32,000 bases of DNA. Origin: Desulfotalea psychrophila LSv54. Lineage in GTDB: Bacteria > Desulfobacterota > Desulfobulbia > Desulfobulbales > Desulfocapsaceae. The notes under the pieces are model-generated. The model was given only the letters and a program-made list of their open reading frames with translations. It was not told where the DNA came from and made no database searches. Position numbers and translations under genes: made by a program. Location of the stretch: NCBI RefSeq assembly GCF_000025945.1, contig NC_006138.1:150001-182000 (forward strand). Direction: 5' to 3'. This document shows positions 6,027-31,409 of the stretch, piece by piece (positions within the stretch are counted from its first letter, which is position 1; each line of letters starts with the position of its first letter).

Positions 6027-6040
6027 GTCCAACAAATAAA

Positions 6041-12066: not shown

Positions 12067-12092
12067 CCAACAATATTTAACTGGAGAAGCCC

Positions 12093-12923: not shown

Positions 12924-12927
12924 AAAT

Positions 12928-12963
12928 AGGGGCGGGAAGAGAAAGCCCCTGCCCCTTTGCTTT
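12928..12963. terminator. Bidirectional hairpin between the convergent MoSto-like and PilZ genes
   Basis: AGGGGCGGG (12928-12936) pairs with CCTGCCCCT (12948-12956). It is A-rich upstream and T-rich downstream. Confidence 0.45.
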
Positions 12964-12980
12964 AGCAGAGATGGCCCTGA

Positions 12981-13340
12981 TCAGTTAATGCCCAGATGAC
13001 CTTTAATTTCTCGCTCTGTCTCTTCAGGATCTTCAGCATTATAGACCAAAATATTCTTTATATGGCCAAGAGATTCCGGCGAGACGGAGGTAAAACGAAA
13101 ACCAAGTCTCCCCTCCTTTACCCAAACAACATGGCCTACCACATCCACCACAAGGCTACCGCCACCAAGATGCATTTTCAGCAAAATATCCTCATCTTCC
13201 GGTAGGATTGCGGCTGTAACCAGCTGACAGCCTCCGAGGGCAAGGTCAAATATTTCATCCACAGGATATATCACCCCAGCCAGCGAAATTTCACCTGTTC
13301 CCCAAAAAAACATTCGGCTAAACCGACGCTTACCATCCAT
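12981..13340 (-). CDS. Single-domain PilZ protein (putative c-di-GMP receptor)
   Basis: RxxxR motif (RRFSR) near the N-terminus and a DxSxxG-like motif (DLALGG, Ser replaced by Ala), about 119 aa. A strong RBS (ggaggag) precedes the ATG at 13340; the track ORF extends to 13382. Confidence 0.75.
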   Translation of the reverse strand: MDGKRRFSRMFFWGTGEISLAGVIYPVDEIFDLALGGCQLVTAAILPEDEDILLKMHLGGGSLVVDVVGHVVWVKEGRLGFRFTSVSPESLGHIKNILVYNAEDPEETEREIKGHLGIN

Positions 13341-13623
13341 ACTCTCCTCCCCTTTATTTTTTTTAAGGATACTTCGTAACAAATTCCCCGTTGCGAATAC
13401 AGAAAAACAACAGCACAGATCTTAAACACATAATTTCAAATAGTCACTCCCCTGCATAATCAGCAAAGCATACAGCAAAACCCCTGATATCGTTCAACAG
13501 GCAAATAGATGAAAGCCATACATTAACATTGAAAATCATCGCCTAACGCAGTATACAGCCTAGAATGTCTTTTCTGCTAAGCCCTTTACTGACAGCTAAA
13601 AAACGAAATACAAGGAGAACAAA

Positions 13624-15171: not shown

Positions 15172-15229
15172 ACTCCTTGCAAAGACAAAACTGTTTGCAA
15201 ACGTTACTGACGATTTTTGCACCTTAAAT

Positions 15230-15265
15230 GGCCTGGTAAGATCCACTCTTACCAGGCCGTTTTCT
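15230..15265 (+). terminator. Strong intercistronic hairpin (attenuator/partial terminator) after the binding-protein gene
   Basis: Perfect 12-bp stem GGCCTGGTAAGA (15230-15241) / TCTTACCAGGCC (15247-15258), 5-nt loop, then gttttct. Confidence 0.6.
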
Positions 15266-15455
15266 GTAGCTAAACAGATATAAATCCCCTCTCCAAAAGC
15301 TACAATTAGAATTGCATGAAACTTTCAAAAAGCATAAGGCCTCCCGAGAAGGTTTTACACAAGCACTCACTCCACGGGAGCGGGAAAAATCAAGCGGGAA
15401 AGCTGAACGCAGCCTGTGCGGCACAGCATTTTTTGCAAAAACCAAATAAAAAACC

Positions 15456-16433
15456 ATGATAGCATTCTTTATCCGCCGGTTCACTCAGGCCCTCTTCGTC
15501 ATGCTCGTCATCAGCGTGATTGGTTTTGCCATCAAGCAAAATGTAGGTGATCCTGTCCGTGAAATTACCGGCGTATCCGTATCCGCTGCCGAGCGTGAAG
15601 CTCTACGTGAAGATCTTGGCCTCAACGACCCCTTTATGGTGCAATGGACCCGCTTTGTCGGCAAGGCCATCCAGGGAGACTTGGGCAACTCTTTTTATTT
15701 CAAAAAACCCGCCGTTGACGTCATCATGAGTAAGGCCCCGGCCACCATGGAGCTGGTTTTTTCCACCTCTATCCTGGTCATTTTTCTCTCTATTCCTCTG
15801 GGAATCTATGCCGCCGTCTACCCAAGGTCGACCCTCTCCCGTTTTTTTATGGGAGCCAGTATCGTTGGTGTTTCAATTCCCGTCTTTTTGACGGCAATTC
15901 TTCTTATATATGTTTTTTCTGTAGGGCTCGGTTGGCTTCCATCCTATGGACGAGGTGACCTGGTAGAAATCTTCCCCGGCTGGGAATCAGGGTTTTTCAC
16001 CTTGGACGGCCTACGACACCTGGTCCTGCCGACCATATCCCTGACCGCCATCATGCTCCCCCTCTTTATCCGTCTCATTCGGGCAGAGATGCAGGAATCG
16101 CTGCAAACAGAGTATGTTAAATTTGCCCGAGCAAAGGGTTTAAAGCCAAGCCGAGTACTCTTCGTTCACGCCTTCAAAAACACCCTCCTCCCCGTTATCA
16201 CCGTAGGTGGTGTACAATTAGGAACCCTTATTGCCTTTACCATTTTAACAGAAACGGTCTTTCAGTGGCAGGGAATGGGCTCTATGTTTATCGAGTCTGT
16301 AGAACGTGCTGATACCTCACTCATGGTCGCCTACCTGGTCTTTGTCGGTTTGATTTTTGTGGTGGTCAATACATTTGTTGACCTTATCTATGGTTTTGTT
16401 AACCCCACCATTCGCGTAGCAGGGAGGAAATAA
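15456..16433 (+). CDS. ABC transporter permease (DppB/OppB/NikB-like)
   Basis: Six TM helices, the N-terminal FIIRR-type start (FFIRRFTQALFV) and the EAA-like loop (YVKFARAKGL...VLFVHAFKN). Confidence 0.9.
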   Translation: MIAFFIRRFTQALFVMLVISVIGFAIKQNVGDPVREITGVSVSAAEREALREDLGLNDPFMVQWTRFVGKAIQGDLGNSFYFKKPAVDVIMSKAPATMELVFSTSILVIFLSIPLGIYAAVYPRSTLSRFFMGASIVGVSIPVFLTAILLIYVFSVGLGWLPSYGRGDLVEIFPGWESGFFTLDGLRHLVLPTISLTAIMLPLFIRLIRAEMQESLQTEYVKFARAKGLKPSRVLFVHAFKNTLLPVITVGGVQLGTLIAFTILTETVFQWQGMGSMFIESVERADTSLMVAYLVFVGLIFVVVNTFVDLIYGFVNPTIRVAGRK

Positions 16434-17350
16434 TGAGTAAGTTAAAACAGTTTAAAGAGTCTGATTTCCTCTACCATTTCCTCCGTGACCCTATGGCCCT
16501 CACCAGCTTTGCGGTACTGGCCATCCTTGTGGTACTGAGCTTTGGAGCGCCAATCCTCTCGCCCCATAACCCCTATGATCCGGCCAGCATTGACATCATG
16601 GACTCGGAGCTTCCACCTATTTGGCTAGACGAGGGAGATGCAAACTTCCTCCTCGGTACCGACTCCCAGGGACGCGGTATGCTCTCCACCATGATGTACG
16701 GTATGCGAGTCTCTATTCTCATTGGCCTCGGGGCGGTTATACTTCAATCCATCATCGGTATTATGGTCGGTTTGGTTGCCGGCTATAAGGGAGGGAAAAT
16801 TGATACCCTCCTCATGCGAATGGCCGACGTCCAACTCTCCTTTTCAACCTATATGGTTGCCATTTTCTTCGGGGCAATTTCCCAGGGCATATTCGGCATG
16901 GGCTTTTATGAGCAGTACGCCATCCCCATCCTCATCTTCATCATTGGTTTTGCAGAATGGCCCCAGTATGCCCGTACCGTTCGTGCCTCAGTACTGGCTG
17001 AAAAGAAGAAGGAATACGTCGAAGCAGCCAAGGTTGTGGGCCTCAGCTCCAACCGAATCATGTGGCGCCATATCCTGCCCAATACCATGACCTCTGTTCT
17101 GGTCATCTCCACCGTGCAGGTGGCAAACGCCATCATGAGTGAGGCAGCGCTCTCCTTTATCGGCCTTGGTATGCCTGTAACCCGACCCTCTCTGGGCTCC
17201 CTGATTAAATCCGGTTTCGACTATATTTTCAGCGGCTCATGGTGGATCACCCTTTTCCCCGGTATCTGCCTTGTTGTTCTCATCCTCTCCATCAACCTAC
17301 TTGGTGATTGGTTACGTGATTTTCTCAACCCAAAAATGTACAAGGAGTAG
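16433..17350 (+). CDS. ABC transporter permease (DppC/OppC/NikC-like)
   Basis: Start overlaps the upstream stop (TAATG). It has an OppC-type N-terminal region, an EAA loop (EYVEAAKVVGLSSNRIMWRHILPN) and LLGDWLRD near the C-terminus. Confidence 0.9.
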   Translation: MSKLKQFKESDFLYHFLRDPMALTSFAVLAILVVLSFGAPILSPHNPYDPASIDIMDSELPPIWLDEGDANFLLGTDSQGRGMLSTMMYGMRVSILIGLGAVILQSIIGIMVGLVAGYKGGKIDTLLMRMADVQLSFSTYMVAIFFGAISQGIFGMGFYEQYAIPILIFIIGFAEWPQYARTVRASVLAEKKKEYVEAAKVVGLSSNRIMWRHILPNTMTSVLVISTVQVANAIMSEAALSFIGLGMPVTRPSLGSLIKSGFDYIFSGSWWITLFPGICLVVLILSINLLGDWLRDFLNPKMYKE

Positions 17351-17353
17351 ACA

Positions 17354-18322
17354 GTGAATAAGCATACACTCCTCTCAGTCCAAGGACTTAAGGTTGATTT
17401 CAAACTGAGAGAAAAAATATTTACTGCCGTTGATGGCATCTCCTTTGACCTTGATCGTGGCCAGAGACTTGGTCTTGTCGGTGAATCAGGGGCAGGAAAA
17501 TCGGTTACCGGTTTTGGCATCATCAACCTGATCAGTAAACCGGGTTTCGTCTCCGGCGGCGCCGTCCTCTTTGAGGGAAGAGACCTGACCAAGCTAGGCC
17601 CCGAGGAAATACGACAAATTCGGGGTAACCGTATCAGTATGATCTTCCAGGATCCGATGATGACCCTGAATCCAGTGCTCACCGTCGGCACCCAGATGAT
17701 TGAAACCCTCCTTGCCCATAAAAATATCTCCAAAAAAGAGGCTGAAGCAATTGCCTTGGAGAAGTTGCGCAAGGTGGCAATCCCCTCCCCGGAAAAACGT
17801 TTAAGTCAGTACCCACACGAATTTTCAGGTGGGATGCGTCAGCGTATTGTTATTGCCATTGCCCTGCTGACCTCACCGTCACTGATCATAGCCGATGAGC
17901 CCACCACCGCCCTTGATGTAACCATCCAGGCAGATATCATGGAACTGCTTCTTGAGCTCTGCGAATCCGAAAATATGGCCCTGATCCTCATCACCCACGA
18001 TCTTGCCGTTGTCTCTCAGGTAGCGGAACGGGTAGCTGTAATGTATGCGGGCAATATCGTTGAGCTAGCCTCCACCAAAGACATCGGCGTACGACCTCAA
18101 CACCCATATACCAAGGGGCTACTGGCGGCTCTACCACAAAATGTTTCCCGCCGAGAAAGACTCAATCAGATTCCTGGCTCAATGCCAAGTATCACCAGCA
18201 AATCTGTTGGCTGTGCCTTCCATAAACGTTGCTCCTACGCTGAAGACATTTGCAAAACAACAGTGCCCCCTCTTGAGCTCAAGGCAAGTGGCGCAAGCGT
18301 TGCCTGTCATCTGGTGAAGTAG
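17354..18322 (+). CDS. ABC transporter ATP-binding protein (DppD/OppD-like)
   Basis: Walker A GESGAGKS, signature FSGGMRQR, Walker B LIIADEPTTALD and the C-terminal oligopeptide-type Cys motif (C.FH.RC.......C). GTG start. Confidence 0.9.
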   Translation: MNKHTLLSVQGLKVDFKLREKIFTAVDGISFDLDRGQRLGLVGESGAGKSVTGFGIINLISKPGFVSGGAVLFEGRDLTKLGPEEIRQIRGNRISMIFQDPMMTLNPVLTVGTQMIETLLAHKNISKKEAEAIALEKLRKVAIPSPEKRLSQYPHEFSGGMRQRIVIAIALLTSPSLIIADEPTTALDVTIQADIMELLLELCESENMALILITHDLAVVSQVAERVAVMYAGNIVELASTKDIGVRPQHPYTKGLLAALPQNVSRRERLNQIPGSMPSITSKSVGCAFHKRCSYAEDICKTTVPPLELKASGASVACHLVK

Positions 18323-18392
18323 GTAGGATGGGCATCGACTCTCTCTGATGTCCATCACCCTTTTCCCAAAAGACGAAAACAAAGGTTATGGT

Positions 18393-19406
18393 ATGAAAAA
18401 AGATACTCTTGTTAGCATCCAAAACGTAGTCAAACACTTTGACATCTCAGGTGGTTTGCTTGAACAGATACGTTTTAAAAATAATAAATTCGTTCGTGAA
18501 CAGAGCGTAGTTCACGCTCTCAACGGGGTGAGCCTCGATATTGGTCGTGGCAAGACAGTCAGCGTTGTTGGTGAATCCGGTTGTGGCAAATCCACCCTGG
18601 CTCGATGCGTTATTCGCCTCTATGAGCCAAATGGTGGTCAGATCATCTATGATGGCAAGCGGATAGACAACCTCAGTCACAAGCATATGGCGCCCTACCG
18701 AACACGAATGCAGATGGTCTTTCAGGACCCCTACTCCTCGCTCAATCCCCGCATGAGCGTTGCCCAGATACTTGAAGAACCGATCCGTTTTCACAATCGC
18801 TCCTACACTGCAGGCGATGTCACCGATAAGGTTGCAGAGGTTATGCAGCAGGTGGGAATTGATCCGCTCTGGCGTAAACGTTTCCCCCATGAATTTTCAG
18901 GTGGACAGAGGCAACGCATTGCCATTGCCCGGGCCCTGGCCGTTGATCCTGAGTTCATTGTGGCCGATGAACCCATTGCCGCCCTCGATGTCTCTATCCA
19001 GGCCCAGGTACTCAACCTCCTCATGGACCTTCAGCAGGAGCGGGGACTGACCTATATGTTTATCAGTCACGATCTCTCTGTGGTAGAGCATATTTCCAAT
19101 GAGGTGGCAGTAATGTACCTCGGCACTCTCTGTGAATTCGCCGAGACCGAAAACCTCTACTCCAATCCACGTCATCCCTACACCCGAGCCTTGCTCTCAG
19201 CAATTCCGCAATTTGGCCAGAAGGGTTTTCAGCATCTGCGCCTGCAGGGCGATGTACCAACCCCCATAGACCTGCCATCCGGTTGTGTTTTTCATGGAAG
19301 GTGTCCCTATGCGGATAAACGATGTCGAACCGAAATGCCCATCATCAGACGACTCGACTGCGGATCACAGGTCGCCTGTCATGGCGTTGAAGAAGGAAGA
19401 ATCTAA
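18393..19406 (+). CDS. ABC transporter ATP-binding protein (DppF/OppF-like)
   Basis: Walker A GESGCGKST, signature FSGGQRQR, Walker B FIVADEPIAALD and C-terminal C.FH.RC. The start is set at MKKDTLVSIQNV; an upstream ATG at 18348 is possible. Confidence 0.9.
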   Translation: MKKDTLVSIQNVVKHFDISGGLLEQIRFKNNKFVREQSVVHALNGVSLDIGRGKTVSVVGESGCGKSTLARCVIRLYEPNGGQIIYDGKRIDNLSHKHMAPYRTRMQMVFQDPYSSLNPRMSVAQILEEPIRFHNRSYTAGDVTDKVAEVMQQVGIDPLWRKRFPHEFSGGQRQRIAIARALAVDPEFIVADEPIAALDVSIQAQVLNLLMDLQQERGLTYMFISHDLSVVEHISNEVAVMYLGTLCEFAETENLYSNPRHPYTRALLSAIPQFGQKGFQHLRLQGDVPTPIDLPSGCVFHGRCPYADKRCRTEMPIIRRLDCGSQVACHGVEEGRI

Positions 19407-19852
19407 TGGAAGAACAGCCCTATGCCCCCGCTGGTGAATTACTGCTACGCACTCTGGCCATGCCCTCTGACACAAACCCCAATGGTGACATCTTCGGTGG
19501 TTGGATTATGTCACAGATGGATATTGCCGGTGGTATTTTAGCCAAGGAGATCAGCTGTGCCCGTACAGTCACAGTTGCCGTAGACAGTATCGTTTTCATT
19601 AAACCGGTAAGCGTCGGCGACGTAGTCTGCTGCCATGGCAAGGTAATTCATATCGGCACCACATCGATGAAAATAAATTTGGAGGTCTGGACAAAAAAGA
19701 CCTCCGCATCCGGTACAGCCCACGCCCATGAACGTTTTTTAGTTACCAAGGCAGCCTTTACCTATGTGGCCATCGATGCCATGGGAAAAAAGCAGGTCAT
19801 TGACAAGGAGAGTCCCTGCTTTCAGGAGTTTATGCAAAATCTCCCCCTATAA
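19406..19852 (+). CDS. yciA: Acyl-CoA thioester hydrolase, YciA-type hotdog fold
   Basis: LLLRTLAMPSDTNPNGDIFGGWIMSQMDIAGGILAKEI...VGDVVCCHGK...GTTSMKINLEVW is near-colinear with E. coli YciA as I recall it. The ATG overlaps the upstream TAA (TAATG). Confidence 0.88.
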   Translation: MEEQPYAPAGELLLRTLAMPSDTNPNGDIFGGWIMSQMDIAGGILAKEISCARTVTVAVDSIVFIKPVSVGDVVCCHGKVIHIGTTSMKINLEVWTKKTSASGTAHAHERFLVTKAAFTYVAIDAMGKKQVIDKESPCFQEFMQNLPL

Positions 19853-20033: not shown

Positions 20034-21434
20034 ATGTTTGCTTCACAGCTACGACGATCACTACTCCTCCTACTCACGCCCCTACTGCTGTTAAGCTGTA
20101 GCATGATCCCCCCAAAAGAAGCCCACCACCAACAGCTACTTACCCCAGAAGAAATTGGTATAAGAGCTGAAATGCAGATCAGAACCTGCCGCTGGTGGGA
20201 AGATTTCAGAGACCCTCAACTCAACACCCTGATAGAGATGGGCCTCCGGCAAAACCTCAATTTACAGCAGGTGAGTTATCGCCTCTCATTGGCCAAGCAA
20301 CAGGTTCTTCTCAACCAGGCAGGACAAAAGGTGCAGGCCAACCTTAAACTGAACGGTGGTGGCCTTGCTGCCAAGGGAGATTTTCCCAGTCAAAATTCAG
20401 CATTTGCCCTGGCCCTGCCCATGGTTGGCTACAACTTAGATTTTTGGGGCAAGATAGAGAACAGGGTACTTGCGGCAAGCAACAGAGAGAAGGCCGCTCA
20501 GGTAAATGTCACCCAGGCCAGGTTGGCCCTGGCCGTCTCCATCGCCCAGAGCTATTTAAACCTACAGAACAATCGGCAACAAAAGCAGGTCCTGCATAGG
20601 ATGATAACAAACCAGAAGGCAGCAGAGGAGATTATCGTAGGGAGCGTAAAAAGAGGTTTTCTCCCCTACGAAGAGTTACTGCAGAGCCAAAGCTATAGCC
20701 ACCTTCTCAGGGCAGAACTGACAGGAGCTAAAGCCCAAGAAATACTTGCAAAAAATCAAATAGCACTCTACCTGGCCAGAACAACAGAACAACTCGCCCC
20801 CCTGGTAGATGGAAAACTTACCCTCATAGCACCGCTGCAAGAGGTTCTATCCATCCCCATGAATCTGCTGGCAAGACGCCCCGACATTCAGGGCAAAAAA
20901 TGGATTGTGCAGGCCTATGCCGCCGAGATAAAGGTGGCACGGACTGCCTTCTATCCCGATTTTAACCTTATGCTTGGCGGGGCTTTTCTGGCAATGACCA
21001 ACATACATCCAGACAAGCTCTCCCTTCTCAGCGGATCAATTGCCACCAGCCTCCCCCTCTATGATGGTGGCCTTCGAGATGCGGGTCTCTCTATTGCCAA
21101 TATAATGTACGACAGAGCCGTACTTGACTATAACCAATCCCTGCTCGGAGCCGTACGCGAGGCATCCGATGCCATTATTTTACTCAAGACAAGCCAAGAG
21201 CAAGAGATGCTCACCGGCATCTCAACCGAAAAGCAGAGGCAGGCATATGATATTGCCAGAAAAAAATATCAGCGGGGAATTAGTCCATATCTCCTGATGA
21301 ACCAGGCAGAGAGCAGATGGCAGCAAACCTTCCTCAATCTTATTAAAACAGAGACAGCAACACTGCAGAGCCAATTACGCCTTATCATGGCTCTGGGCGG
21401 CGGTTACAGCCCAAAAGCTGCTACGGAGAAATAA
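20034..21434 (+). CDS. Outer-membrane efflux lipoprotein (NodT/TolC family)
   Basis: Signal peptide with the lipobox LLSC, two OEP repeats, and the size and position upstream of the membrane-fusion and MFS pump genes. Confidence 0.85.
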   Translation: MFASQLRRSLLLLLTPLLLLSCSMIPPKEAHHQQLLTPEEIGIRAEMQIRTCRWWEDFRDPQLNTLIEMGLRQNLNLQQVSYRLSLAKQQVLLNQAGQKVQANLKLNGGGLAAKGDFPSQNSAFALALPMVGYNLDFWGKIENRVLAASNREKAAQVNVTQARLALAVSIAQSYLNLQNNRQQKQVLHRMITNQKAAEEIIVGSVKRGFLPYEELLQSQSYSHLLRAELTGAKAQEILAKNQIALYLARTTEQLAPLVDGKLTLIAPLQEVLSIPMNLLARRPDIQGKKWIVQAYAAEIKVARTAFYPDFNLMLGGAFLAMTNIHPDKLSLLSGSIATSLPLYDGGLRDAGLSIANIMYDRAVLDYNQSLLGAVREASDAIILLKTSQEQEMLTGISTEKQRQAYDIARKKYQRGISPYLLMNQAESRWQQTFLNLIKTETATLQSQLRLIMALGGGYSPKAATEK

Positions 21435-22580
21435 ATGCCCACAACATCACAGGAAAATAAGCCAAAAAGAAACCTCCTTATAGCTATTTTTTTAATAGCC
21501 ATCGCAATCGGCATCGTCATATGGATTTTTCTCTCACAGAGACAACAGGAATCAACCGACGATGCCTATGTTATAGGCAACACCATCATTATCAGCTCCA
21601 AAATTGCCGGAACGGTGCAAAAGATCTCTGTCTCCAACACAGAGTTTGTCGATCAACAACAAATTCTTATCGAGCTTGAGCAAAACGATCTCCTCATACA
21701 GGAAAAAATAGCTGAGGCCAATCTGACCAGGATTGTGCGCACGGTCAAGAGCCAGTACCTTACCACCGGCCAACTTAAAGACAATATAAGGGCCACGGAT
21801 TTTAAAATTGCCGAACTTGAGGCCGATCTGGCCAGACGGGCAGGCGGAGATCTTGATGGCACCGTCACTCTGGAGAACCTACAACACATGGGACAGGCAA
21901 TCAAAATTGCCAGGGCCCAACGTGACAGTGCCCGCCAGGGACTAGAGGCAAAACAGACCATTTTTCCAGGCGAAGAGCTACAAAACAACCCTGAAATCAA
22001 ACTGGCCACCGCTCACCTGCAAGAGATCTATCTGGCAAGGATAAACAGCACCATCATTGCCCCAATGCATGGCCTCATAGCCAACAGGAGCATTCAGGCC
22101 GGCGAAAGGATCTCTCCCGGACAGCCTCTGATGGCCGTCATCCCCCTTGATAATGTCTGGGTGGTAGCAAATTTCAAGGAAACTCAGCTCGGAGATATCC
22201 GCATCGGCCAAGCCGTAGAACTTATCTCCGATATCTATGGCAAGAAGCTCCCATTTGAGGGCATTATTGCAGGCATCGGTGCTGGAACCGGTAGCGCATT
22301 TTCAGCAATCCCTGCCGAGAACGCCACGGGCAACTGGATTAAAATAGTGCAGAGGGTACCCGTCAAAATCTTCATCAGCCCGGATCAAATCAAAAAGCAC
22401 CCCCTACGGATAGGCATGTCGATGACAGTAAGGGTAGATACTAAAGATCAAGAGGAGAAGAGCTTTCAGCACATTCAACAGCACGATGACATCTCCGCGA
22501 TCTATCAAAGCCATAGACAACTGGCCGAGCAACAGGCCAGAGATTTTCTTAATACCCTCCTTATCCATAACAATAAATAA
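21435..22580 (+). CDS. HlyD/EmrA-family membrane fusion protein
   Basis: Single N-terminal TM helix, coiled-coil middle region, a lipoyl/beta-barrel motif (I.AP..G.I....I..G..I..GQPLMAV.P.D..WV.ANFKETQL) and GNW.K..QR.PV.I at the C-terminus. Confidence 0.88.
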   Translation: MPTTSQENKPKRNLLIAIFLIAIAIGIVIWIFLSQRQQESTDDAYVIGNTIIISSKIAGTVQKISVSNTEFVDQQQILIELEQNDLLIQEKIAEANLTRIVRTVKSQYLTTGQLKDNIRATDFKIAELEADLARRAGGDLDGTVTLENLQHMGQAIKIARAQRDSARQGLEAKQTIFPGEELQNNPEIKLATAHLQEIYLARINSTIIAPMHGLIANRSIQAGERISPGQPLMAVIPLDNVWVVANFKETQLGDIRIGQAVELISDIYGKKLPFEGIIAGIGAGTGSAFSAIPAENATGNWIKIVQRVPVKIFISPDQIKKHPLRIGMSMTVRVDTKDQEEKSFQHIQQHDDISAIYQSHRQLAEQQARDFLNTLLIHNNK

Positions 22581-24088
22581 TGGCCAACTCCCCCCAGAGC
22601 ACGCAGTGGCTACAGGGCATTAAGCTTACTGCCGCAACATTTTCCCTGGCCATGGCCGCCTTTATGATGGTACTGGATACCACCATTGCCAACGTCGCCG
22701 TCCCCACCATTGCCGGTAATGTGGGAGTCTCGGTAGATCAGGGCACCTGGGTCATTACCGCCTTTGGAGCAGCAAATGCGATCTCCATGCCCCTCACCGG
22801 CTTCCTCAGTCACCGATTCGGCGAGGTGCGCCTCTTTCTCTTCGCCGTCATAGGCTTCACCCTCACCTCTTTTCTCTGTGGAACGGCAACCAGCATGGAA
22901 TCGCTGGTTATCTATCGCATTCTCCAAGGCGCAGTATCGGGCTCTATAGCCCCCCTCTCCCAGAGCTTACTACTCCGTTGTTACTCCAAAGAGAAGAGAG
23001 GGACAGCCCTGGCCCTATGGACCCTAACCATTATCGTCGCCCCCATTGTCGGCCCCATCCTCGGCGGCTACCTCACCGACAATTACCACTGGTCATGGAT
23101 ATTTTTTATCAATGTACCCATTGGTATTTTTGTCCTTATCTCCTGTAGCATGCTGCTCAAGGGAAAGGAAACTACCCGTAGCCGCCCAAGCATCGATTAC
23201 ATAGGTATAGGCCTATTGGTCTTTGCCGCTGGTAGCCTGCAGATGCTACTTGATCTGGGCAAACAGCACGACTGGTTCCAATCCACATTTATCATAGGCC
23301 TTGGCCTTGTTGCCCTTGTCTCCTGGGGAGTGATGATCATTTGGGAGTATTACCACGACAACCCAGTGGTTAATGTCAGGCTCTTTAAAAACCGTAATTT
23401 TTCCCTGGCCGTTCTTATTATGGGTCTGGGTTACGGCATATACTTTGGTTCATCGGTACTCCTGCCCCTCTGGTTACAGGGAGTCATGGGATATACGGCA
23501 ACATGGGCAGGACTTGCCACCTCTCCCTCCGGAATCCTCGCCGTGGTTTCCGCACCCATGATGGCCTATCTGACAAGAAAAGTTGATCTCCGTCTTATCT
23601 TAACCTATGCCTTTGTTAACTTTGCCATAGTCGGTTTTTGGCGGGCAAATTTTTCTCTCGACAACTCCTTTTTCATCATCTTCCTGCCCCAGCTGGTGGT
23701 GGGGGCTGCAACCATGCCCTTTCTTGTCCCCCTGCAGAGAATGATCATAGACGGTTTACCCTCTTCACAGATTGCCACAGCAGTTGCCCTCTCCAGTTTT
23801 TTTAGAACACTTTCAGGCAGTTTCTCGTCTTCCGTGGTCACCACCGCCTGGGACGACAGAATGACATTTCACTATGCAAGAATCGCTGAAAATTTCACCG
23901 TCTACAACCAGTATTCAATGGGCTACCTCAGAGATGTACATGGCAATATATCTCTTATGAGTAAGATAATTATGCGCCAGGCCTATATGCTCTCCACGGT
24001 GGATCTCTTCTGGGCAACTGGCGTAATCTGCCTCTGCCTTGTCCCCATAATATGGCTGACTAAACCAATAAATATAGAGATAGAGTAA
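22580..24088 (+). CDS. MFS DHA2-family (EmrB/QacA-type, 14-TMS) drug efflux pump
   Basis: LDTTIANVAVPTIAG, RFGEVRLF, GGYLTDNYHWSWIFFINVPIG motifs. The start overlaps the upstream stop (TAATG). Confidence 0.9.
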   Translation: MANSPQSTQWLQGIKLTAATFSLAMAAFMMVLDTTIANVAVPTIAGNVGVSVDQGTWVITAFGAANAISMPLTGFLSHRFGEVRLFLFAVIGFTLTSFLCGTATSMESLVIYRILQGAVSGSIAPLSQSLLLRCYSKEKRGTALALWTLTIIVAPIVGPILGGYLTDNYHWSWIFFINVPIGIFVLISCSMLLKGKETTRSRPSIDYIGIGLLVFAAGSLQMLLDLGKQHDWFQSTFIIGLGLVALVSWGVMIIWEYYHDNPVVNVRLFKNRNFSLAVLIMGLGYGIYFGSSVLLPLWLQGVMGYTATWAGLATSPSGILAVVSAPMMAYLTRKVDLRLILTYAFVNFAIVGFWRANFSLDNSFFIIFLPQLVVGAATMPFLVPLQRMIIDGLPSSQIATAVALSSFFRTLSGSFSSSVVTTAWDDRMTFHYARIAENFTVYNQYSMGYLRDVHGNISLMSKIIMRQAYMLSTVDLFWATGVICLCLVPIIWLTKPINIEIE

Positions 24089-24416: not shown

Positions 24417-25190
24417 ATGAAAAAGGCTTTCACCTCACTCACTTTTTTTTGTGCTACTCTGCTCTTCCTCTCATCTGCAAATGCCCATGAATTTATTGTA
24501 AAACCTGTTCAGTTCAATGTTCCCGTCGACCATAAACTACCCTTTAATGTCATCTCCTGTCATGCCTTCATGATCAGTGAAGAGGCAGAGGCAATCAACC
24601 AGGTTGAAGTTGCCCTGATTAAAGGCGACAAAAAAACAAAACTGTCACTACAAAAAAATGACACCCTCCTCACTCTGGATGGTACCGCCGATATCAAGGA
24701 GGCTGGCACATCCATACTTGTTGGCCATCGCCATGGTATTACCTGGACCCAAACAACAACAGGATGGAAACAGGCGAGTAAAAAGAAGTGCAAAGGAGTT
24801 ATCTCCAGCGGTAAATATGAAAAATTCTGCAAAACACTTATCAATGCCGGCAAGGCAGATAATGGTTATAGCCAGATTCTCGGACAACAACTTGAAATAG
24901 TACCAATCTCAAATCCTGCTAAGGCTATTGTCGGCAAAGAGATGTCCTTCCAAATTTTAGCTGACGGCAAGCCACTTTCCACAAAAGTTTATGCCACCTA
25001 TGATGGATTTAGTAACAGAGTAAACACCTATGCCTACTTCACCGAAACCGATGATAGCGGCATAGCCCATGTCCAGATCACTCACGCGGGGACATGGATG
25101 CTTAGGGTTGAGCATATAGATGATAAGGCTACAGCGGATTACGACAAACATATACTACGGGCTGTTCTCGTTTTCAGTGTAACAAGATGA
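24417..25190 (+). CDS. DUF4198 / COG5266 (NikK/CbiK-like) periplasmic metal-uptake component
   Basis: RBS aggag. A signal peptide ends SSANA, followed by HEFIVKP; a mature N-terminal His then a hydrophobic strand is typical of DUF4198. About 257 aa, predicted beta-rich. Confidence 0.7.
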   Translation: MKKAFTSLTFFCATLLFLSSANAHEFIVKPVQFNVPVDHKLPFNVISCHAFMISEEAEAINQVEVALIKGDKKTKLSLQKNDTLLTLDGTADIKEAGTSILVGHRHGITWTQTTTGWKQASKKKCKGVISSGKYEKFCKTLINAGKADNGYSQILGQQLEIVPISNPAKAIVGKEMSFQILADGKPLSTKVYATYDGFSNRVNTYAYFTETDDSGIAHVQITHAGTWMLRVEHIDDKATADYDKHILRAVLVFSVTR

Positions 25191-25675
25191 GAGTAAAAAT
25201 TTACCCATCTCTTGTCGCTCTCTCCCTTCTTCTTATGGCAATGACTCTGAGTTCCCCTACAGCGTCATGCGCCCACGGGACAGGCTACAGAATAGTGGAC
25301 AACGATGACACTGTAACCATGGAATTTTATTACTCTACTGGTAGTCTAATGCCATACGCAGAGGTACTAATTTTTAGCCCGACAGATAAGGAGAGTGAAT
25401 ATCAAAACGGCAGGACTGACAGGAGAGGACGATTTGCCTTCCGGCCCAACAGTCCCGGAGAATGGCAGATAAAGGTCTATGATGGCCGAGGCCATAAGGT
25501 AAACGGCAAATGTTCAGTCACCAGGGCCGATGAAACAGATTCTCCCCTAATACTCAAATCAACATCCGCCAAGACCGTACCAAAGAGGTGGGGCGTGATT
25601 TTAGGAATCAGCCTTATCTTCAATCTCTGTGGCGCAATCGCCCTGTTCAACAAAAAGAGACAAAAAAAAGCTTAA
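25187..25675 (+). CDS. Exported beta-sandwich (transthyretin/CarboxypepD_reg-like) protein with a C-terminal membrane anchor
   Basis: ATGA start/stop overlap with the upstream gene. It has a signal peptide and the motif NGRTDRRGRFAFRPNSPGEWQIKVYDGRGH, typical of this fold. A C-terminal hydrophobic helix (WGVILGISLIFNLCGAIALF) is followed by KKRQKKA. Confidence 0.65.
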   Translation: MRVKIYPSLVALSLLLMAMTLSSPTASCAHGTGYRIVDNDDTVTMEFYYSTGSLMPYAEVLIFSPTDKESEYQNGRTDRRGRFAFRPNSPGEWQIKVYDGRGHKVNGKCSVTRADETDSPLILKSTSAKTVPKRWGVILGISLIFNLCGAIALFNKKRQKKA

Positions 25676-25898: not shown

Positions 25899-26453
25899 AT
25901 GGATAATAAAAATGACATAACACACAGGACGATATTTTTGCGCAATTTTTTCTTCGCCCATAATAAAGAAGAAATCCAACAGGCTGTCACAGAGCTTGCA
26001 GCGTTTTCCCATACCCCACTGCCCGCCAATACGGATTGGTTTAAGGTAGAAGCTGACTTTAAACGCCTCTTTAGCAAGCCGACGCTCAGTCCTGCACCCC
26101 CCTACGCCTCTGCCTATATCAACGAAAACAGCACCAAGACAAGTGCCGCACTTGAAATTCAAAATTTTTACTCTTTCTTAGGCGTTAAGGCCCCGGACAG
26201 CCAAGCTGTCGATCATCTCTCTCACCAACTGAATGCCTATATCCTCCTACTTAAGGAGCAGGCAAATCGACCCAGGGATCAAAACCTGAAGAATCTGCAA
26301 AAAAAATTCATTCAGGTTCACCTGGAACAGTGGTTACCCAAATTTATTAGCGCTATGCGTCAGGAAAAAGACCTTCCCTTAGCCATCACCATGGTCACAA
26401 ACTCCCTGGAAAGTTGGTTTAAGGCCGAAAAAATAGCCCTCACCAACAAATAG
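25899..26453 (+). CDS. TorD/DmsD/NarJ-family redox-enzyme maturation (Tat proofreading) chaperone
   Basis: Family pattern F.RLF..P....APPYASAYI......T...L.I..FY...G........VDHLSHQLNAY.LL. There is no obvious RBS, so the start is uncertain. Confidence 0.65.
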   Translation: MDNKNDITHRTIFLRNFFFAHNKEEIQQAVTELAAFSHTPLPANTDWFKVEADFKRLFSKPTLSPAPPYASAYINENSTKTSAALEIQNFYSFLGVKAPDSQAVDHLSHQLNAYILLLKEQANRPRDQNLKNLQKKFIQVHLEQWLPKFISAMRQEKDLPLAITMVTNSLESWFKAEKIALTNK

Positions 26454-26641
26454 GGACCAATCTAAAGACAAAAAACTTCCGGGGCAGAGTAATAACTGAC
26501 AAATAACTCTGCCCACCCAGATAGTTTTTTGCACCCACCTCCTATCTCCCTAGCAACATCCCTAGCACAGTTTTCCTGAACCCTTTCCACGGGTCGAAGC
26601 AGGGAAAGAATCATACAAAAAAGCCAAAAATACTTATATGC

Positions 26642-26669
26642 TTGATTTAACTTGAAATCATGATAATAT
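26642..26669 (+). promoter_or_regulatory. Candidate sigma70 promoter for the hydrogenase-MCP operon
   Basis: TTGATT (26642-26647), 16-nt spacer, TAATAT (26664-26669), in an AT-rich stretch about 180 nt upstream of the large-subunit ATG. Confidence 0.3.
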
Positions 26670-26847
26670 ACCTAGCAAAGTTCCAGACTTATTAAATTCC
26701 ACCGCGTACATCATAGATTAAACATTTCCACCTGCAATGGAAAAGATGGTCAACTTTATACCCAGCTCGTCAGAATATTCTTTACGTCTCAACAACAGAA
26801 CAAATATCCGTTTTTCTTATCTATATCCAACAGTGGAGTAAGCGACT

Positions 26848-28347
26848 ATGTCCTCGATTGTAAAACTGGATCCCTTTACACGTATTGAAGGGCACCTCGC
26901 AGTAAGTCTTAACGTACAAAACAACAGGGTGAAGGATGCACAGTGCACGGGGGAAATGGTTAGAGGTTTTGAACAGATTCTTCAAGGAAGATCCCCACTG
27001 GATGCGCAACAAATTGTCCAGAGAATCTGTGGTGTATGTCCCGTCTCCCATGGTATTGCCTCGGTGCTTGCCCAGGAACAGGCCTACGGGATTCAACTCC
27101 CTGAAAATGCTCGTCTCCAGCGTAATATCATGCTGGCCAGCAACTATATCCAAAGCCACATCACCCACTTCTACCACCTCTCAGCCCTTGATTTTATCGA
27201 TATAACGGCAATCTTAGACTATAAGGGTGGTGATGCATTTCTCCTGGCCATGCAAAACTGGGTAAAAGCAGAACTCGCCTCCAAAAACTTATTTCCCGCC
27301 GCCCCCTTTCTCCCCCGCTACCAAGGACGCTACCTAAAAGATGTCGACTTTAACATCACCGCCCTACGTAACTACTTTATCGCCCTTGAGATGCGGGCAA
27401 CAGCACACCAGTTAATTGCAATATTTGCCGGTAAAATGCCCCATATGGCCTCTATTGTCCCGGGAGGAATTACCGAAAAAGTCACTACCAAAAAAATCAT
27501 CCAATGCAAATCTAAACTGGCCCAATTAAAGGGCTTCATCAACAACTCCTACCGAAATGACCTATTGGCCATTACTGCAGAGTTCCCCTCATATCTTTCC
27601 ATCGGCAAGAGCTGTGGTAATTTCCTCAGTTTTGGTGCCTTCGGTGATGCCAACCTGGAAAAATCGCCTCTGCTACCCGCAGGCGCCCTCCTGCAAGGAA
27701 AGTTAGAAGAGGTTGATGATATATCAATAAAAGAGGATGTCTCCTTTTCCAAGTACAGCAGTGATTCTGGCAGAGAGAAAACAGTTCCGGAACCGCATAA
27801 AAGCGGGGCCTACAGCTGGATCAAGGCCCCTCGCTATCGAGGAGAAGCTATGGAGGTCGGTCCTCTTGCCAGACTGATGGTCGCCCAGGCCAAAGGCAAT
27901 AAAAAAATGCAGGAGGCGAGCAACGCTTTTCTGCAGAAGACAGATCTCTCCCTCACTGACCTGGACTCCTGCCTCGGCCGTCATATTGCCAGATTCATTG
28001 AACTTGAAGTAATCATAGAGAAATGCGAAGAGTGGATGGAGCAGCTGCGCCCTGACCAGCCAACGGCAGTGGACTTTAACATCCCACAACAGGCAGAGGG
28101 CAGGGGGATGATGGAGGCACCACGCGGCGCCCTGGGACACTGGGTAACGATCGAAAAACAAAAGATCGGCCGTTATGAATGTATTGTTCCCACCACATGG
28201 AACTGCTCCCCAAAGGATGACAAGCAGATCCCCGGCCCCGTTGAACAATCACTTATCGGCACCATCGTTGCCGATAAGACAAACCCCCTTGAAGCAGCAC
28301 GAATCGTCCGTTCCTACGATCCATGCCTGGCATGCGCCGTTCACTAG
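26848..28347 (+). CDS. [NiFe]-hydrogenase large subunit, short form (499 aa) with no C-terminal extension
   Basis: N-terminal TRIEGH, the L1 motif RICGVCPVSH (27022-27051), and the C-terminal DPCLACAVH followed directly by a stop (28318-28347). RBS ggag lies 9 nt before the ATG. Confidence 0.95.
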   Translation: MSSIVKLDPFTRIEGHLAVSLNVQNNRVKDAQCTGEMVRGFEQILQGRSPLDAQQIVQRICGVCPVSHGIASVLAQEQAYGIQLPENARLQRNIMLASNYIQSHITHFYHLSALDFIDITAILDYKGGDAFLLAMQNWVKAELASKNLFPAAPFLPRYQGRYLKDVDFNITALRNYFIALEMRATAHQLIAIFAGKMPHMASIVPGGITEKVTTKKIIQCKSKLAQLKGFINNSYRNDLLAITAEFPSYLSIGKSCGNFLSFGAFGDANLEKSPLLPAGALLQGKLEEVDDISIKEDVSFSKYSSDSGREKTVPEPHKSGAYSWIKAPRYRGEAMEVGPLARLMVAQAKGNKKMQEASNAFLQKTDLSLTDLDSCLGRHIARFIELEVIIEKCEEWMEQLRPDQPTAVDFNIPQQAEGRGMMEAPRGALGHWVTIEKQKIGRYECIVPTTWNCSPKDDKQIPGPVEQSLIGTIVADKTNPLEAARIVRSYDPCLACAVH

Positions 28348-28356
28348 GAGAAGATA

Positions 28357-29259
28357 ATGACCACACTTACACGTAGACAGTTTTTAGAGCTCAGTGCCAA
28401 AATGTCTGTGGTACTGGGACTGGGTTCTTCGGCCATCCCTCAGGTAGCTGAGGCCCTCGAGGCACTTACCACCGGCCGTAGCAAGGTTTTGTGGCTCCAG
28501 GCCCAAAGTTGTTCAGGTTGCAGCATCTCCATGCTTGATTCCGAGTCCCCCGGGCCAGCCGAGCTGCTCACCCAATATATCTCGCTGCTCTTCCACCACA
28601 CCCTCTCGGCAGCAACGGGGGAGAGCTGTATGCATATAGTGCGAAAATCTGTTCAGCAGGGTGGCTATATTTTAGTTGTTGAGGGGAGCATTCCGGCAGG
28701 AATGCCCGAGGCCTGCATGATGGGGGGCATCCCCGTTGGGGAATTGATAAAACAAGCTGCCGAGAGGGCTGATTACGTAATTGCCCTTGGCACCTGCGCT
28801 GCCTTTGGCGGAATTCCAGCAGCCGAGGGCAATCCGACGGGAGCTGTCCCCCTTGGCCCATTTCTCCAGGCCAATAAGATCAAAACCCCAATCATCAATA
28901 TTCCCGGTTGTCCCTCCCATCCCGACTGGTTGGTGGGCACCTTGGTCCATCTCTGTAAATTCGGTCTACCACCATGCGATGAGCAGAGGCGACCCAAGAT
29001 GTTCTTTGCCAGTAAAAATCATGATAAGTGTCCAAGGTTTAGCGACTATGAACAGGAAAATTTTGCCCGTAAATTTTCTGATCCCGGCTGCCTTTTCAAA
29101 CTCGGCTGCCTCGGAGTCAGTACCTATGCAGACTGCACGATACGAGATCGCAACGGCGGCACCAATGCCTGCATAAAAGCCGGTGCTCCCTGCATAGGCT
29201 GCTCATCACCCCAATTTGCTCAAAAAAAATCACTCCCCTTCTATCGCAAGAGCGAGTAA
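28357..29259 (+). CDS. [NiFe]-hydrogenase small subunit with a twin-arginine signal peptide and no C-terminal membrane anchor
   Basis: Tat motif TRRQFLE. Proximal-cluster Cys are present ([21 protein letters not shown]). Distal-cluster H..C (HDKC) and GCLFKLGC, and medial-cluster C...PCIGC (Pro retained), are also present. RBS ggagaag; 9 nt separate it from the large-subunit stop. Confidence 0.93.
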
Positions 29260-29263
29260 CAAT

Positions 29264-30946
29264 ATGAAACTACATACTAAGTTAATTCTAGCCCTTCTCA
29301 GCTGTCTTACTCTAGTTGTTGTAGTAGCACAGCTCATCCAGTATTCACAACTGGAAAAACAAATTAACAACCTTGCTCAAGCAAACATAGAACTCCTGAG
29401 CAACCGAGAACAGGCCTTTGCCGCTAACCTCTATCACTCGGTGGCTAAATCCGTAGAGGGTTCACTTAATCGAGGTGAGATGGAAAAATTTTCTGCCCTG
29501 TTAAAGCAGACCAGAAAAATCGACGGTCTCCTGGAATTCTCTCTCTTTGACACCAATAACAGGGTCAACTACTCCTCAAAAAGCGAATTTCTGGGCCAGA
29601 AGCTGCCCAGAGAGATCCAGAAGCAGATAAGCGGAGGAGAAATATCCATCTCCACCGACGAGAAGAGCATAAACATCTATCAGCCACAGAAGATCACAGG
29701 AGACTGCCTACGCTGCCACACAGGCTGGAACAAACAAATGGACCACGGCGGCGTCATGTTTTTTCGTTTTTCCACCAAGGCCCTGCAACAGGCAAAAAGA
29801 GAGACCGATGAGGGCATAGCAACCATAGCAGATAACTACCTGATTGCCGCAGCCATTTCTGTCCTTACCATGCTAACCGTGATAGGCATTGCCATATTTT
29901 TTCTCCTCCGCCATATGGTAAAAATACCTCTTGAGCAGATCGGCTCAAACTTTAATCAGGCGGCAGATGGTAATCTCACCGTACAGGCAAATATTGCGTC
30001 AAAGGATGAGATAGGCATCCTTGGACATAATTTCAACCACTTTCTCAGCCAACTCCACGACATAATGCAAAACATTGCCCGACAGATAGAAACCCTCAAA
30101 GGTGCATCGGGTTCACTGGAAAATGTCGCGGCAGAGATGTCGAAAGGGGCCGAAGAGATGACCCATAGATCTCATAGTGTGGCCTCGGCAAGCGTGGAGA
30201 TGAGTTCAAACATGACCCTTGTCTCGGAGGCTATGACAGAGGCTAACAGCAATATCAATATAATGGCGGCATCCACTGAAGAGATGACTGCAACCATCAA
30301 TGAAATTGCCAAAAATGCGGCGAATGCAAAAAGCATATCCGAAACAGCGGTGACAGAGGCAAGCCATGCCACCCAAAAAATGAAACATCTAGGGAACTCT
30401 GCTCAGAATATTGGCAAGATCACAGGGACAATCACAGAAATATCGGCACAGACAAATCTCCTTGCCCTCAACGCTACCATTGAAGCGGCCAGAGCAGGTG
30501 AGGCTGGCAAGGGTTTTGCCGTTGTTGCAGCTGAGATCAAACAGCTTGCCAATCAGACCTCTGCTGCAACCATAGAGATTACCAGCAGCATCTCTGAAAT
30601 ACAAACTGATACAGCTGGGGCCATTGAGGAAACCGAGCATATCGGTCAGGTAATCAGTCGTATCGATGATATTATCTCGACAATAGCCTCGGCGGTAGAG
30701 CAACAATCTGCAAGCACACGAGAGATTGCCACCAGCATAAATCAGGCATCCAGCGGTCTTAAGGAAATTAGCTGCAATATCCAATCCAGCTCTGCGGTAG
30801 CGGAAGAGATCAGCAAAGACATCAACAGCGTTGACAGCACTGCCAGCCATATTGCCAGCAACAGTAGCAGTGTTGAAAAAAATGCCAAGGATCTGGCCGG
30901 ACTTGCAGAACAACTCAAGGATCATGTTGAGAGGTTCCAAATATAG
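29264..30946 (+). CDS. Methyl-accepting chemotaxis protein with a periplasmic CxxCH (heme-c) sensor domain
   Basis: TM1 ([18 protein letters not shown]), a periplasmic region of about 170 aa containing CLRCH (29705-29719), TM2, HAMP ([13 protein letters not shown]), and the conserved signalling hairpin [33 protein letters not shown]. The ATG lies 4 nt after the small-subunit stop; the track ORF starts earlier, at 29216. Confidence 0.93.
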
Positions 30947-31104: not shown

Positions 31105-31127
31105 CCCCTTGCTACAAGGGGTTTTTT
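31105..31127 (+). terminator. Rho-independent terminator
   Basis: CCCCTTG (31105-31111), loop CTA, CAAGGGG (31115-31121), followed by TTTTTT. Confidence 0.8.
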
Positions 31128-31409
31128 GCTATATATACAGATTATATTTTACTGGAAAACTGAAAAGAAAGCAGTTCTCCTTAACATCTGCGGTACTCAA
31201 ATCATCAGTATAAATGATGATTTAGCAACACAGTTTCATTGAATTATTTAACGCATTAAATGATGGGCAATATTTGGGCAAATACTTCTTAAGCTATACC
31301 TAGCACAAGAAGACATCACTCTGGCAGGTACAGAGTACTTGCCCTACTATATCCTCAATGCGATGGTCCGTCTTCCTGAGACAGGTATCATTTAGGTAAT
31401 GAATATTTC

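Follow-up and report, generated by a model that had tools for sequence, protein, structure and literature searches.

Why would the genes of an exported [NiFe]-hydrogenase be followed, at a distance of a few nucleotides, by the gene of a chemoreceptor? The question is raised by a stretch of 32,000 nucleotides from Desulfotalea psychrophila LSv54 (NCBI RefSeq assembly GCF_000025945.1, contig NC_006138.1, positions 150,001 to 182,000 of the forward strand; hereafter the window), in which three consecutive genes encode the large subunit of the hydrogenase, its small subunit and a methyl-accepting chemotaxis protein (MCP). A previous interpretation made from the DNA alone (the sequence-only reading) had taken this cassette for a candidate module of taxis along H2 gradients. 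Here, we compared the cassette with its relatives in genomes and metagenomes. At this level, comparative genomics strongly supports its interpretation as a candidate module of H2 taxis: the three genes almost certainly form a functional unit, and this unit probably couples the activity of the hydrogenase to chemotaxis.

The large-subunit gene (26848 to 28347, plus strand; 499 amino acids; Pfam NiFeSe_Hases, 3.9e-152), the small-subunit gene (28357 to 29259, plus strand; 300 amino acids; Pfam Oxidored_q6 and NiFe_hyd_SSU_C) and the MCP gene (29264 to 30946, plus strand; 560 amino acids; Pfam HAMP and MCPsignal) are separated by 9 and 4 nucleotides, as the sequence-only reading had described and as the coordinates of the open reading frames (ORFs) and a direct reading of both junctions bear out. 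The first junction (28348 to 28356, plus strand) reads CAC TAG gagaagata ATG, and a Shine-Dalgarno-like AGGAG overlaps the large-subunit stop codon; the second reads GAG TAA caat ATG, with its 4-nucleotide gap given an MCP start at the ATG at 29264. An earlier start, a TTG at 29216 inside the small-subunit gene, is used in the database model (P0127, 576 amino acids) and in the longest ORF, and the additional stretch of the P0127 model (29216 to 29263) overlaps this gene by 44 nucleotides. Because 70 orthologues, collected with a search using the full-length MCP, begin with MKLHTKL (561 to 563 amino acids), we place the start at the ATG, and the annotated P0127 start is probably 16 codons too long. 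A terminator scan found no terminator-like site on the plus strand between any of the three genes, and a terminator-like hairpin with a T run (31105 to 31129, plus strand; hairpin at 31105 to 31121 with 7 bp, 5 of them GC) follows 159 nucleotides past the MCP stop codon, so that cotranscription of the large-subunit, small-subunit and MCP genes appears likely. The next gene downstream, starting at 31410, encodes a SulP permease, and no cytochrome, Isp or HybA-type gene follows the MCP at this locus. The absence of a downstream redox-partner gene was thus described correctly by the sequence-only reading; as evidence it is weak, because sulfate reducers often pair a soluble hydrogenase of the periplasm with a cytochrome c3 whose gene lies at another locus.

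The arrangement is conserved well beyond D. psychrophila. All five relatives that were looked up directly (54–67% identity) have the order large subunit, small subunit, MCP, the distant ones with unrelated flanks. A genome scan with one genome per species yielded 80 loci (41–56% identity), for which gene order, the C-terminus of the large subunit and the neighboring genes were tabulated, and a neighbor-joining tree without bootstrap support was calculated from 86 large subunits. The 26 large subunits that precede their small subunit and lack a C-terminal extension form a single clade in this tree. An MCP gene lies directly 3' of the small-subunit gene in 25 of these 26 loci, but at the 60 loci that fall outside the clade no MCP gene occurs within ±7 kb (Fisher p = 8e-21), which answers in the affirmative the synteny check that had been suggested from the D. 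psychrophila sequence. The clade covers Desulfobacterota, Verrucomicrobiota, Planctomycetota and Riflebacteria, and its Desulfobacterota comprise Desulfotalea, Desulfocapsa, Desulfobacter curvatus DSM 3379, Desulfuromonadales and Deferrisomatales. When the ORFs of the 26 loci were clustered, only the families of the large subunit, the small subunit and the MCP were shared among them; median gaps were about 21 nucleotides between the large and the small subunit and about 15 nucleotides between the small subunit and the MCP. Neither a membrane anchor nor a linked redox partner was found in any of the 26 clade loci. The divergence of the MCP sensor domain follows that of the large subunit (Mantel r = 0.75, reached by 0 of 2000 permutations) and that of the small subunit (r = 0.86), and we conclude from this co-divergence that the three genes evolved as a unit. 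Linkage was also recovered from the opposite direction: in a reverse scan of metagenomes anchored on the sensor domain, a small-subunit gene lies directly upstream in 64 of the 75 loci with sufficient upstream sequence.

Individual loci show variations of this arrangement. A Pirellulales metagenome-assembled genome (MAG; L026, 6472 to 14632) has the order cheW, large subunit, small subunit, MCP, HBM-type MCP, cheB, and its cassette MCP is split into two overlapping ORFs (9549 to 10265 and 10258 to 11244) by a frameshift or an assembly error. Another Pirellulales locus (L018, 1 to 2522) carries cheW and a second MCP gene upstream of the cassette. A second, paralogous MCP with the heme motif stands in tandem in L014 (9422 to 12777) and upstream on the opposite strand in L038, where the MCP genes occupy 5278 to 6699 and 9529 to 11193. 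Two further gene arrangements occur outside the cassette clade. L045, L046 and L055 have the large subunit first and keep the extension, with about 450–520 intergenic nucleotides and no MCP. Five loci from Chloroflexota or Actinomycetota MAGs (L048, L051, L057, L083 and L084) represent a third hydrogenase type, in which the small subunit comes first, the large subunit ends at the histidine of DPCxxCxxH, and neither a recognizable twin-arginine motif nor an MCP is present; these enzymes may be cytoplasmic and group-1-like.

What kind of enzyme, then, is linked to the MCP? The large subunit matches the protein P0001 of D. psychrophila with 100% identity, contains the Ni-ligand motifs RICGVCPVSH (C61, C64) and DPCLACAVH (C493, C496) and conserves the glutamate of RIEGH and the catalytic arginine; C61, C64, C493, C496, E14, H16, R426, V63 and L111 are invariant in the alignment of the 86 compared relatives. 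It stops at the DPCxxCxxH histidine (H499; DPCLACAVH-stop) and has no C-terminal extension, which agrees with the sequence-only reading and holds for all 26 aligned family members. The small subunit begins with a twin-arginine translocation (Tat) signal (RRQFLE, nucleotides 28372 to 28389) and ends 18 residues past its last CxxC in a polar tail without a hydrophobic transmembrane anchor, again as noted before. The tail is short and polar in 26/26 clade members, and an RRxF[LIM]-type Tat motif is found in most of their small subunits, the apparent misses being over-extended ORF starts. The ligands of the distal FeS cluster (H222/C225/C245/C251, His-ligated) and of the medial one (C260/C272/C279/C282, four cysteines) are kept throughout the clade, as are C52, C147 and C185 of the proximal cluster, whose C55 is kept in 24 of 26 members; the small subunits of the two Phycisphaerae loci L020 and L028 have an aspartate in place of the second proximal-cluster cysteine (SCSGDS). 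The four-cysteine medial site implies three [4Fe-4S] clusters, as in [NiFeSe] enzymes. Judged by these residues, the hydrogenase looks catalytically complete.

Comparison with solved structures in the Protein Data Bank (PDB) places the large subunit nearest to group 1a (bit score 374), followed by groups 1b (344), 1e (306), 1c (300) and 1d (about 280), with much lower scores for the group 2a enzyme Huc (187) and for groups 3 and 4 (at most 126). The best solved relative of the small subunit is that of the [NiFeSe] enzyme of Desulfovibrio vulgaris Hildenborough (DvH; 1.2e-65). On sequence criteria the cassette therefore encodes an exported group-1-type hydrogenase nearest to group 1a ([NiFeSe]-type) and not a group 2 sensor. 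Two features typical of group 1a are absent, namely the small-then-large gene order and the processed C-terminal extension; among the 60 relatives outside the clade, 55 have this order and 55 keep an extension of about 15 amino acids. In the neighbor-joining tree the cassette enzymes make up a separate clade beside group 1a, among uncharacterized 1a-like small-then-large sequences, and are not nested in a characterized respiratory clade. Such nesting, combined with an MCP adjacency that relatives do not conserve, was an outcome that the sequence-only reading had named as refuting its interpretation; the actual outcome clearly favors a functional unit. Its description of the hydrogenase as sensor-like fares less uniformly: the missing C-terminal extension fits it, but the Ni ligands, the catalytic glutamate and arginine and the pair V63/L111 are those of ordinary uptake enzymes. 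In cytoplasmic H2 sensors the gas channel is narrowed by an Ile/Phe pair, and we take V63/L111 to be equivalent to I62/F110 of the regulatory hydrogenase on the basis of residue spacing, no structural alignment being involved. Membership in group 2 was rejected on four grounds, i.e. the nearest solved relatives are of group 1a, Huc reaches half their score, the small subunit carries a Tat signal and V63/L111 is a normal channel pair. The traits of group 2c are likewise missing, since none of the 26 cassettes contains a GGDEF gene and the sequence type is that of group 1. An insertion at about residues 119–150 of the large subunit, absent from the solved [NiFeSe] enzymes, was considered as a clade-specific dock for the MCP and discarded, as the nearest small-then-large relatives without an MCP share this segment.

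The third gene encodes a receptor with the order TM1, periplasmic sensor domain, TM2, HAMP (residues 222–266, 6.7e-09) and signaling domain (MCPsignal, residues 351–525, 1.2e-31), where TM1 and TM2 are its two hydrophobic transmembrane (TM) segments. Between them lies a single copy of a c-type heme attachment motif, CLRCH (C148 to H152; 29705 to 29719, plus strand), so that the two-TM topology and the single periplasmic CxxCH of the sequence-only reading are both borne out. The sensor domain (residues ~28–190; 29345 to 29833, plus strand) has no Pfam family at threshold. Weak matches to the Tll0287-like/DUF3365 family (PF11845), a heme-c PAS-like family, were obtained for 11 of 25 members, all of them below the cut-off, with E = 0.15 for the D. 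psychrophila MCP and 0.002 at best. A profile search of PDB sequences with the sensor domain gave no sequence-level match to any solved structure. In a confident AlphaFold2 model based on a 70-sequence alignment (mean pLDDT 89.8), a long helix at the N-terminus leads into a PAS/Cache-like domain with five strands, and helices span residues 3–69 and 172–218. With this model, Foldseek returned the extracytoplasmic Cache/PDC sensors WalK, KinD, DcuS and CitA as well as the heme-c sensors GSU0935 (3b42, E = 5e-5) and GSU0582 (3b47, E = 1.1e-3).

Conservation within the domain is concentrated around two motifs. S67, R70, G71, E72, M73, K75, F76, G88, R150, C151 and H152 are invariant in the 70 orthologues, including the whole RGEM motif (R70 to M73; 29471 to 29482, plus strand), and D147, C148 and W155 are nearly so, which gives the family signature SLxRGEMxKF ... 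DCxRCHxxW. M73 and CxxCH occur together in 21 of 25 genome cassettes and are jointly absent in the remaining 4, as expected of a His/Met-ligated c-type heme. Covalent attachment of a c-type heme at CLRCH is accordingly predicted from the motif, and M73 is a candidate for the distal ligand. An exhaustive profile search with the sensor domain, which defined the wider family, returned 493 clusters (50% identity) at E <= 1e-3; at E <= 1e-10 the RGEM...CxxCH domain constitutes an uncurated family of at least 372 such clusters. Both the RGEM-type methionine and CxxCH are present in 122 of the 150 best representatives, and CxxCH is present in all 80 metagenome loci that were found via the sensor domain.

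The family is not confined to cassettes. The sensor domain heads hybrid histidine kinases with the architecture HisKA-HATPase-REC-REC-Hpt (P0281, P0314 and P0333; L090, L093 and L153), and it also occurs in an MCP-hemerythrin fusion (P0316) and in a PAS-containing MCP (P0249, L094). At the loci checked, no hydrogenase is adjacent to the kinases P0281 and P0333, to the L153 kinase or to the PAS-containing MCP P0249. Wherever a sensor protein linked to a hydrogenase was checked, it proved to be an MCP, and none of the three hybrid kinases whose gene context could be assessed has such a link. Apparent cases of hydrogenase-linked sensors with an output other than an MCP were rejected, as they turned out to be short MCPs (~500 amino acids) under the tblastn threshold.

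These features suggest how the three gene products might work together. The large and small subunits would associate in the cytoplasm, no C-terminal processing being needed, and would be co-exported via the Tat pathway on the signal of the small subunit. The resulting soluble periplasmic enzyme would partner the Cache/PAS-like sensor of the adjacently encoded MCP, a domain that in D. psychrophila and most relatives is expected to carry one covalent c-type heme (CxRCH) with the conserved methionine as its likely sixth ligand. Oxidation of H2 would release electrons that travel along the three FeS clusters of the small subunit, leave it at the distal cluster on the protein surface and enter the MCP heme, and the change in heme redox state or ligation would be propagated through TM2 and HAMP to the signaling tip and on to CheA/CheW. 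Since catalysis by [NiFe] enzymes can run in both directions, the heme would report the local H2/H+ potential, and the cell could use this reading to steer along H2 gradients. According to the Nernst relation, the H2/H+ couple lies at about -270 to -330 mV at 1–100 Pa H2 and pH 7, close to the potentials of the Geobacter heme sensors of about -150 to -250 mV. The contact between hydrogenase and MCP, the electron transfer and the behavioral output are in this scheme deductions from sequence and model. On balance, and with modest confidence, we favor the complete explanation, in which hydrogenase activity is fed into chemotaxis via the distal cluster and the MCP heme and the cell is guided in H2 gradients. 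Direct transfer from FeS cluster to heme, taken as a claim of its own, is a tentative proposal that we rate somewhat below even. The same reserve applies to the idea that the cassette encodes a bacterial H2 chemoreceptor, which would be the first to be defined in molecular terms, with the hydrogenase of an MCP-linked group 1 subclass found in several phyla as its "ligand-binding subunit".

Several observations weigh against the favored explanation. One clade member, L011 (8361 to 10966), has no MCP, and its small-subunit gene is followed by an oppositely oriented gene for an MFS transporter. In four cassettes from Planctomycetota (L018, L020, L026 and L028) the linkage is kept without CxxCH or the methionine, so that heme reduction is not the sole or universal mode of coupling; their sensor domains are nevertheless homologous (24–27% identity), and SLxRGE, F76, E91, S104 and G163 persist in them. 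In 11 of the 75 metagenome loci the sensor domain, in several cases as part of a plain MCP, has no neighboring hydrogenase. Its presence without a hydrogenase on kinases and other MCPs indicates that the domain presumably senses redox state or a gas by itself. On the side of the enzyme, the gas-channel pair V63/L111 is unnarrowed, as in ordinary uptake enzymes, and the protein looks like a working uptake hydrogenase that could also serve a periplasmic cytochrome pool. Finally, an acceptor with one heme has no obvious route of re-oxidation.

A first alternative is energy or redox taxis of an indirect kind, an explanation that we regard as unlikely. In that case an ordinary soluble uptake hydrogenase of the periplasm passes its electrons to the local pool of cytochrome c, with which, in place of the enzyme, the MCP heme equilibrates, and co-expression allows H2-using cells to monitor the redox state of their periplasm as well. 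An enzyme that is nearest to respiratory group 1a, catalytically complete and equipped with a normal gas channel is what one would expect, and both the sensor domains on kinases and other MCPs without a hydrogenase and the usual reliance of soluble sulfate-reducer hydrogenases on a cytochrome c3 encoded elsewhere fit as well. Such a loose association would, however, not be expected to produce a linkage of 25/26 inside and 0/60 outside one clade, gaps of a few nucleotides and a distribution over four phyla, and it leaves the co-divergence of small subunit and sensor (r = 0.86) unexplained. Moreover, the canonical small-then-large relatives, presumably respiratory, never occur with an MCP, and the lost C-terminal extension and inverted gene order of the clade point to a specialized role.

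The Planctomycetota cassettes without a heme motif lead to a second alternative, namely conformational coupling, in which the sensor binds the hydrogenase and reads a redox-linked state of its small subunit, as HoxBC acts on the PAS domain of HoxJ, and the heme, where present, is an additional or ancestral input. These cassettes retain the order large subunit, small subunit, MCP with a homologous sensor, in L018 and L026 with che genes nearby, and the other sensor motifs (SLxRGE, F76, E91, S104, G163) outlast the heme motif. What makes this explanation improbable is that the heme motif and the methionine are essentially invariant in 21 genome cassettes, 80 metagenome loci and 70 orthologues, which indicates strong selection on the heme in the lineage that includes D. 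psychrophila.

In a third alternative the hydrogenase would service a gas or redox sensor: the heme would detect O2, NO, CO or oxidants, and H2 would serve only to hold it in, or restore it to, a ferrous state competent to bind ligands. Supplying a whole [NiFe] enzyme as a source of reductant is costly in a periplasm that is already reducing, and the restriction of the linkage to MCPs, with none on the kinase versions, has no explanation here. This model draws on the view of heme-c PAS-like MCP domains as redox or gas sensors, on the fold likeness to GSU0935 and GSU0582, on the use of the domain by other proteins that have no hydrogenase and on the hemerythrin-fused relative P0316, which suggests an O2-related context; sensing of this kind has been proposed for Desulfovibrio DcrA. 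Weighing both sides, we consider the service model quite improbable. A fortuitous or merely inherited adjacency without functional coupling is effectively refuted, for although the nearest relatives share flanking genes (FeoB, cation-efflux, amino-acid kinase and 4HBT in L003), so that part of the conservation among near relatives reflects vertical inheritance, the linkage extends across phyla with unrelated flanks, is specific to one clade, was confirmed from the MCP side and involves three genes that co-diverge.

The surroundings of the cassette in the window were inspected as well. The promoter presumably lies in the intergenic region of 394 nucleotides upstream of the large-subunit gene (26454 to 26847, plus strand), which contains no plus-strand ORF of at least 80 amino acids; a search of this region for sigma-70-like promoters gave a single weak match (26496 to 26525, 9/12 positions) that was equalled by shuffled sequence. 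Directly upstream of this region lies a gene for a chaperone of the TorD/NarJ/DmsD family (25899 to 26453), preceded by two DUF4198-type genes (24417 to 25190 and 25187 to 25675). The DUF4198 family includes putative periplasmic Ni/Co-binding components, and in D. psychrophila the DUF4198 and chaperone genes might help to provide the hydrogenase with Ni or to proofread its export via Tat. As conserved parts of the module they were rejected, since neither the chaperone nor DUF4198 was found in the other 25 cassette loci. The window (8512 to 19852) shows partial macro-synteny with the locus of a 67%-identical relative (L003, 1 to 7916), and FeoB, cation-efflux, amino-acid kinase and 4HBT thioesterase genes lie upstream of the cassette in both. 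An Opp/Dpp-type ABC transporter (13624 to 19406) inside the shared stretch is absent from L003, as are the OEP-HlyD-MFS efflux system (20034 to 24088) and the DUF4198 and chaperone genes between the 4HBT gene and the cassette. A GGDEF protein of 784 amino acids (702 to 3056), with a large N-terminal region without a Pfam match, is encoded 24 kb from the cassette and is unrelated to it.

What would a coupling of hydrogenase and chemoreceptor mean? In anoxic ecosystems H2 serves as a central currency that passes, at nanomolar concentrations, between fermenters, sulfate reducers, methanogens and syntrophs, and taxis toward H2 has long been hypothesized. No receptor for it has been reported in the searchable literature, and the conserved hydrogenase-MCP cassette provides a concrete molecular candidate. 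Two of the organisms that carry it are in culture, namely D. psychrophila LSv54 and Desulfobacter curvatus DSM 3379. By the measure of sequence and gene order, it defines an unrecognized subclass of group 1 hydrogenases in several phyla, characterized by linkage to an MCP, the large-then-small order and the lack of an extension. If the proposed coupling is true, the sensory hydrogenases, so far cytoplasmic and linked to kinases or c-di-GMP, would be joined by a periplasmic class linked to chemotaxis, and the missing electron donor would be found for one family of heme-c MCP sensors. The cassette would also provide a [NiFe] enzyme that is matured and Tat-exported without the checkpoint of C-terminal processing. 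Metagenome surveys, which at present assign these genes to the respiratory uptake hydrogenases of group 1, would need correction, as their role may be sensing and not energy conservation.

How the cassette relates to known systems can be followed from the enzyme outwards. The best matches of both subunits are group 1a enzymes, i.e. HysAB of D. vulgaris Hildenborough and the hydrogenase of Desulfomicrobium baculatum (PDB 5jsu, 2wpn, 1cc1 and 4kl8), which, like the cassette enzyme, are soluble heterodimers exported via Tat, with about 500 amino acids in the large subunit and a four-cysteine site for the medial cluster. The cassette enzyme differs from them in the large-then-small gene order, in the missing extension (15 residues past the histidine in the DvH SEQRES record), in a cysteine in place of selenocysteine, in its placement in a separate clade and in having an MCP as the partner gene instead of an unlinked cytochrome c3. 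The receptor, in turn, resembles GSU0582 and GSU0935 of Geobacter (3b47 and 3b42) and DcrA of Desulfovibrio in being a two-TM MCP with a single CxxCH and a PAS/Cache-like periplasmic domain. In the Geobacter sensors the distal-ligand methionine presumably sits on the N-terminal helical part, the position that we take the candidate M73 to occupy. There is, however, no detectable sequence relationship to the Geobacter sensors, the cassette family having the signature SLxRGEMxKF...DCxRCHxxW of its own, and whereas the electron donor of the Geobacter and Desulfovibrio heme-c sensors is unassigned, the cassette MCP has the gene of a dedicated enzyme next to it.

Links between hydrogenases and MCPs have appeared in other settings. 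The hydrogenase database HydDB contains an [FeFe] group C2 labeled "chemotactic (putative)", the sole class predicted to signal via MCPs, and lists no MCP-linked [NiFe] class (PMC5037454). Group C2 is putative, cytoplasmic and of an unrelated superfamily, whereas the cassette enzyme is a [NiFe]-hydrogenase of the periplasm; still, its existence means that the general idea is not wholly unprecedented. The statement of the sequence-only reading that no characterized hydrogenase-chemoreceptor system is known can be maintained for [NiFe] enzymes within the searchable literature, but not without mention of this putative [FeFe] class. The Mvh cluster of G. sulfurreducens contains an MCP named MvhV (PMC7894505), and a neighborhood survey from 2025 lists, without comment, an MCP cluster (cluster 29, 87 genes) near [NiFe] hydrogenases (PMC12727194). 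Mvh is a cytoplasmic group 3 enzyme, unlike that of the cassette, and neither paper interprets the MCP link or describes an enzyme of the periplasm, a heme sensor domain or a dedicated clade. No description of a [NiFe] hydrogenase-MCP system was found in the searchable literature, a prior mention being possible in the subscription literature outside the search. In the searchable literature, H2 taxis itself is documented only as a behavior, in Methanococcus maripaludis (PMC3817446).

The closest parallel in function is offered by the group 2b sensors HupUV and HoxBC, the latter with HoxJ. As in these systems, the cassette appears to dedicate a [NiFe]-hydrogenase to a PAS-type transducer, and its large subunit has no extension. 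The group 2b enzymes are cytoplasmic and devoid of a Tat signal, however, while the cassette enzyme is exported; their partner is a histidine kinase that controls transcription (HupT or HoxJ) and not an MCP; and their channel carries the Ile/Phe pair in place of V63/L111, the cassette enzyme being far closer in sequence to group 1. The cassette would thus resemble HupUV/HoxBC-HoxJ in function and yet not be a member of that group, because sequence, location, partner and gas channel differ. The combination of a sensory hydrogenase with a signal transducer is known as a kind, and the cassette of D. psychrophila and its relatives appears to represent a periplasmic, MCP-linked [NiFe] form of it that is new in the searchable literature.

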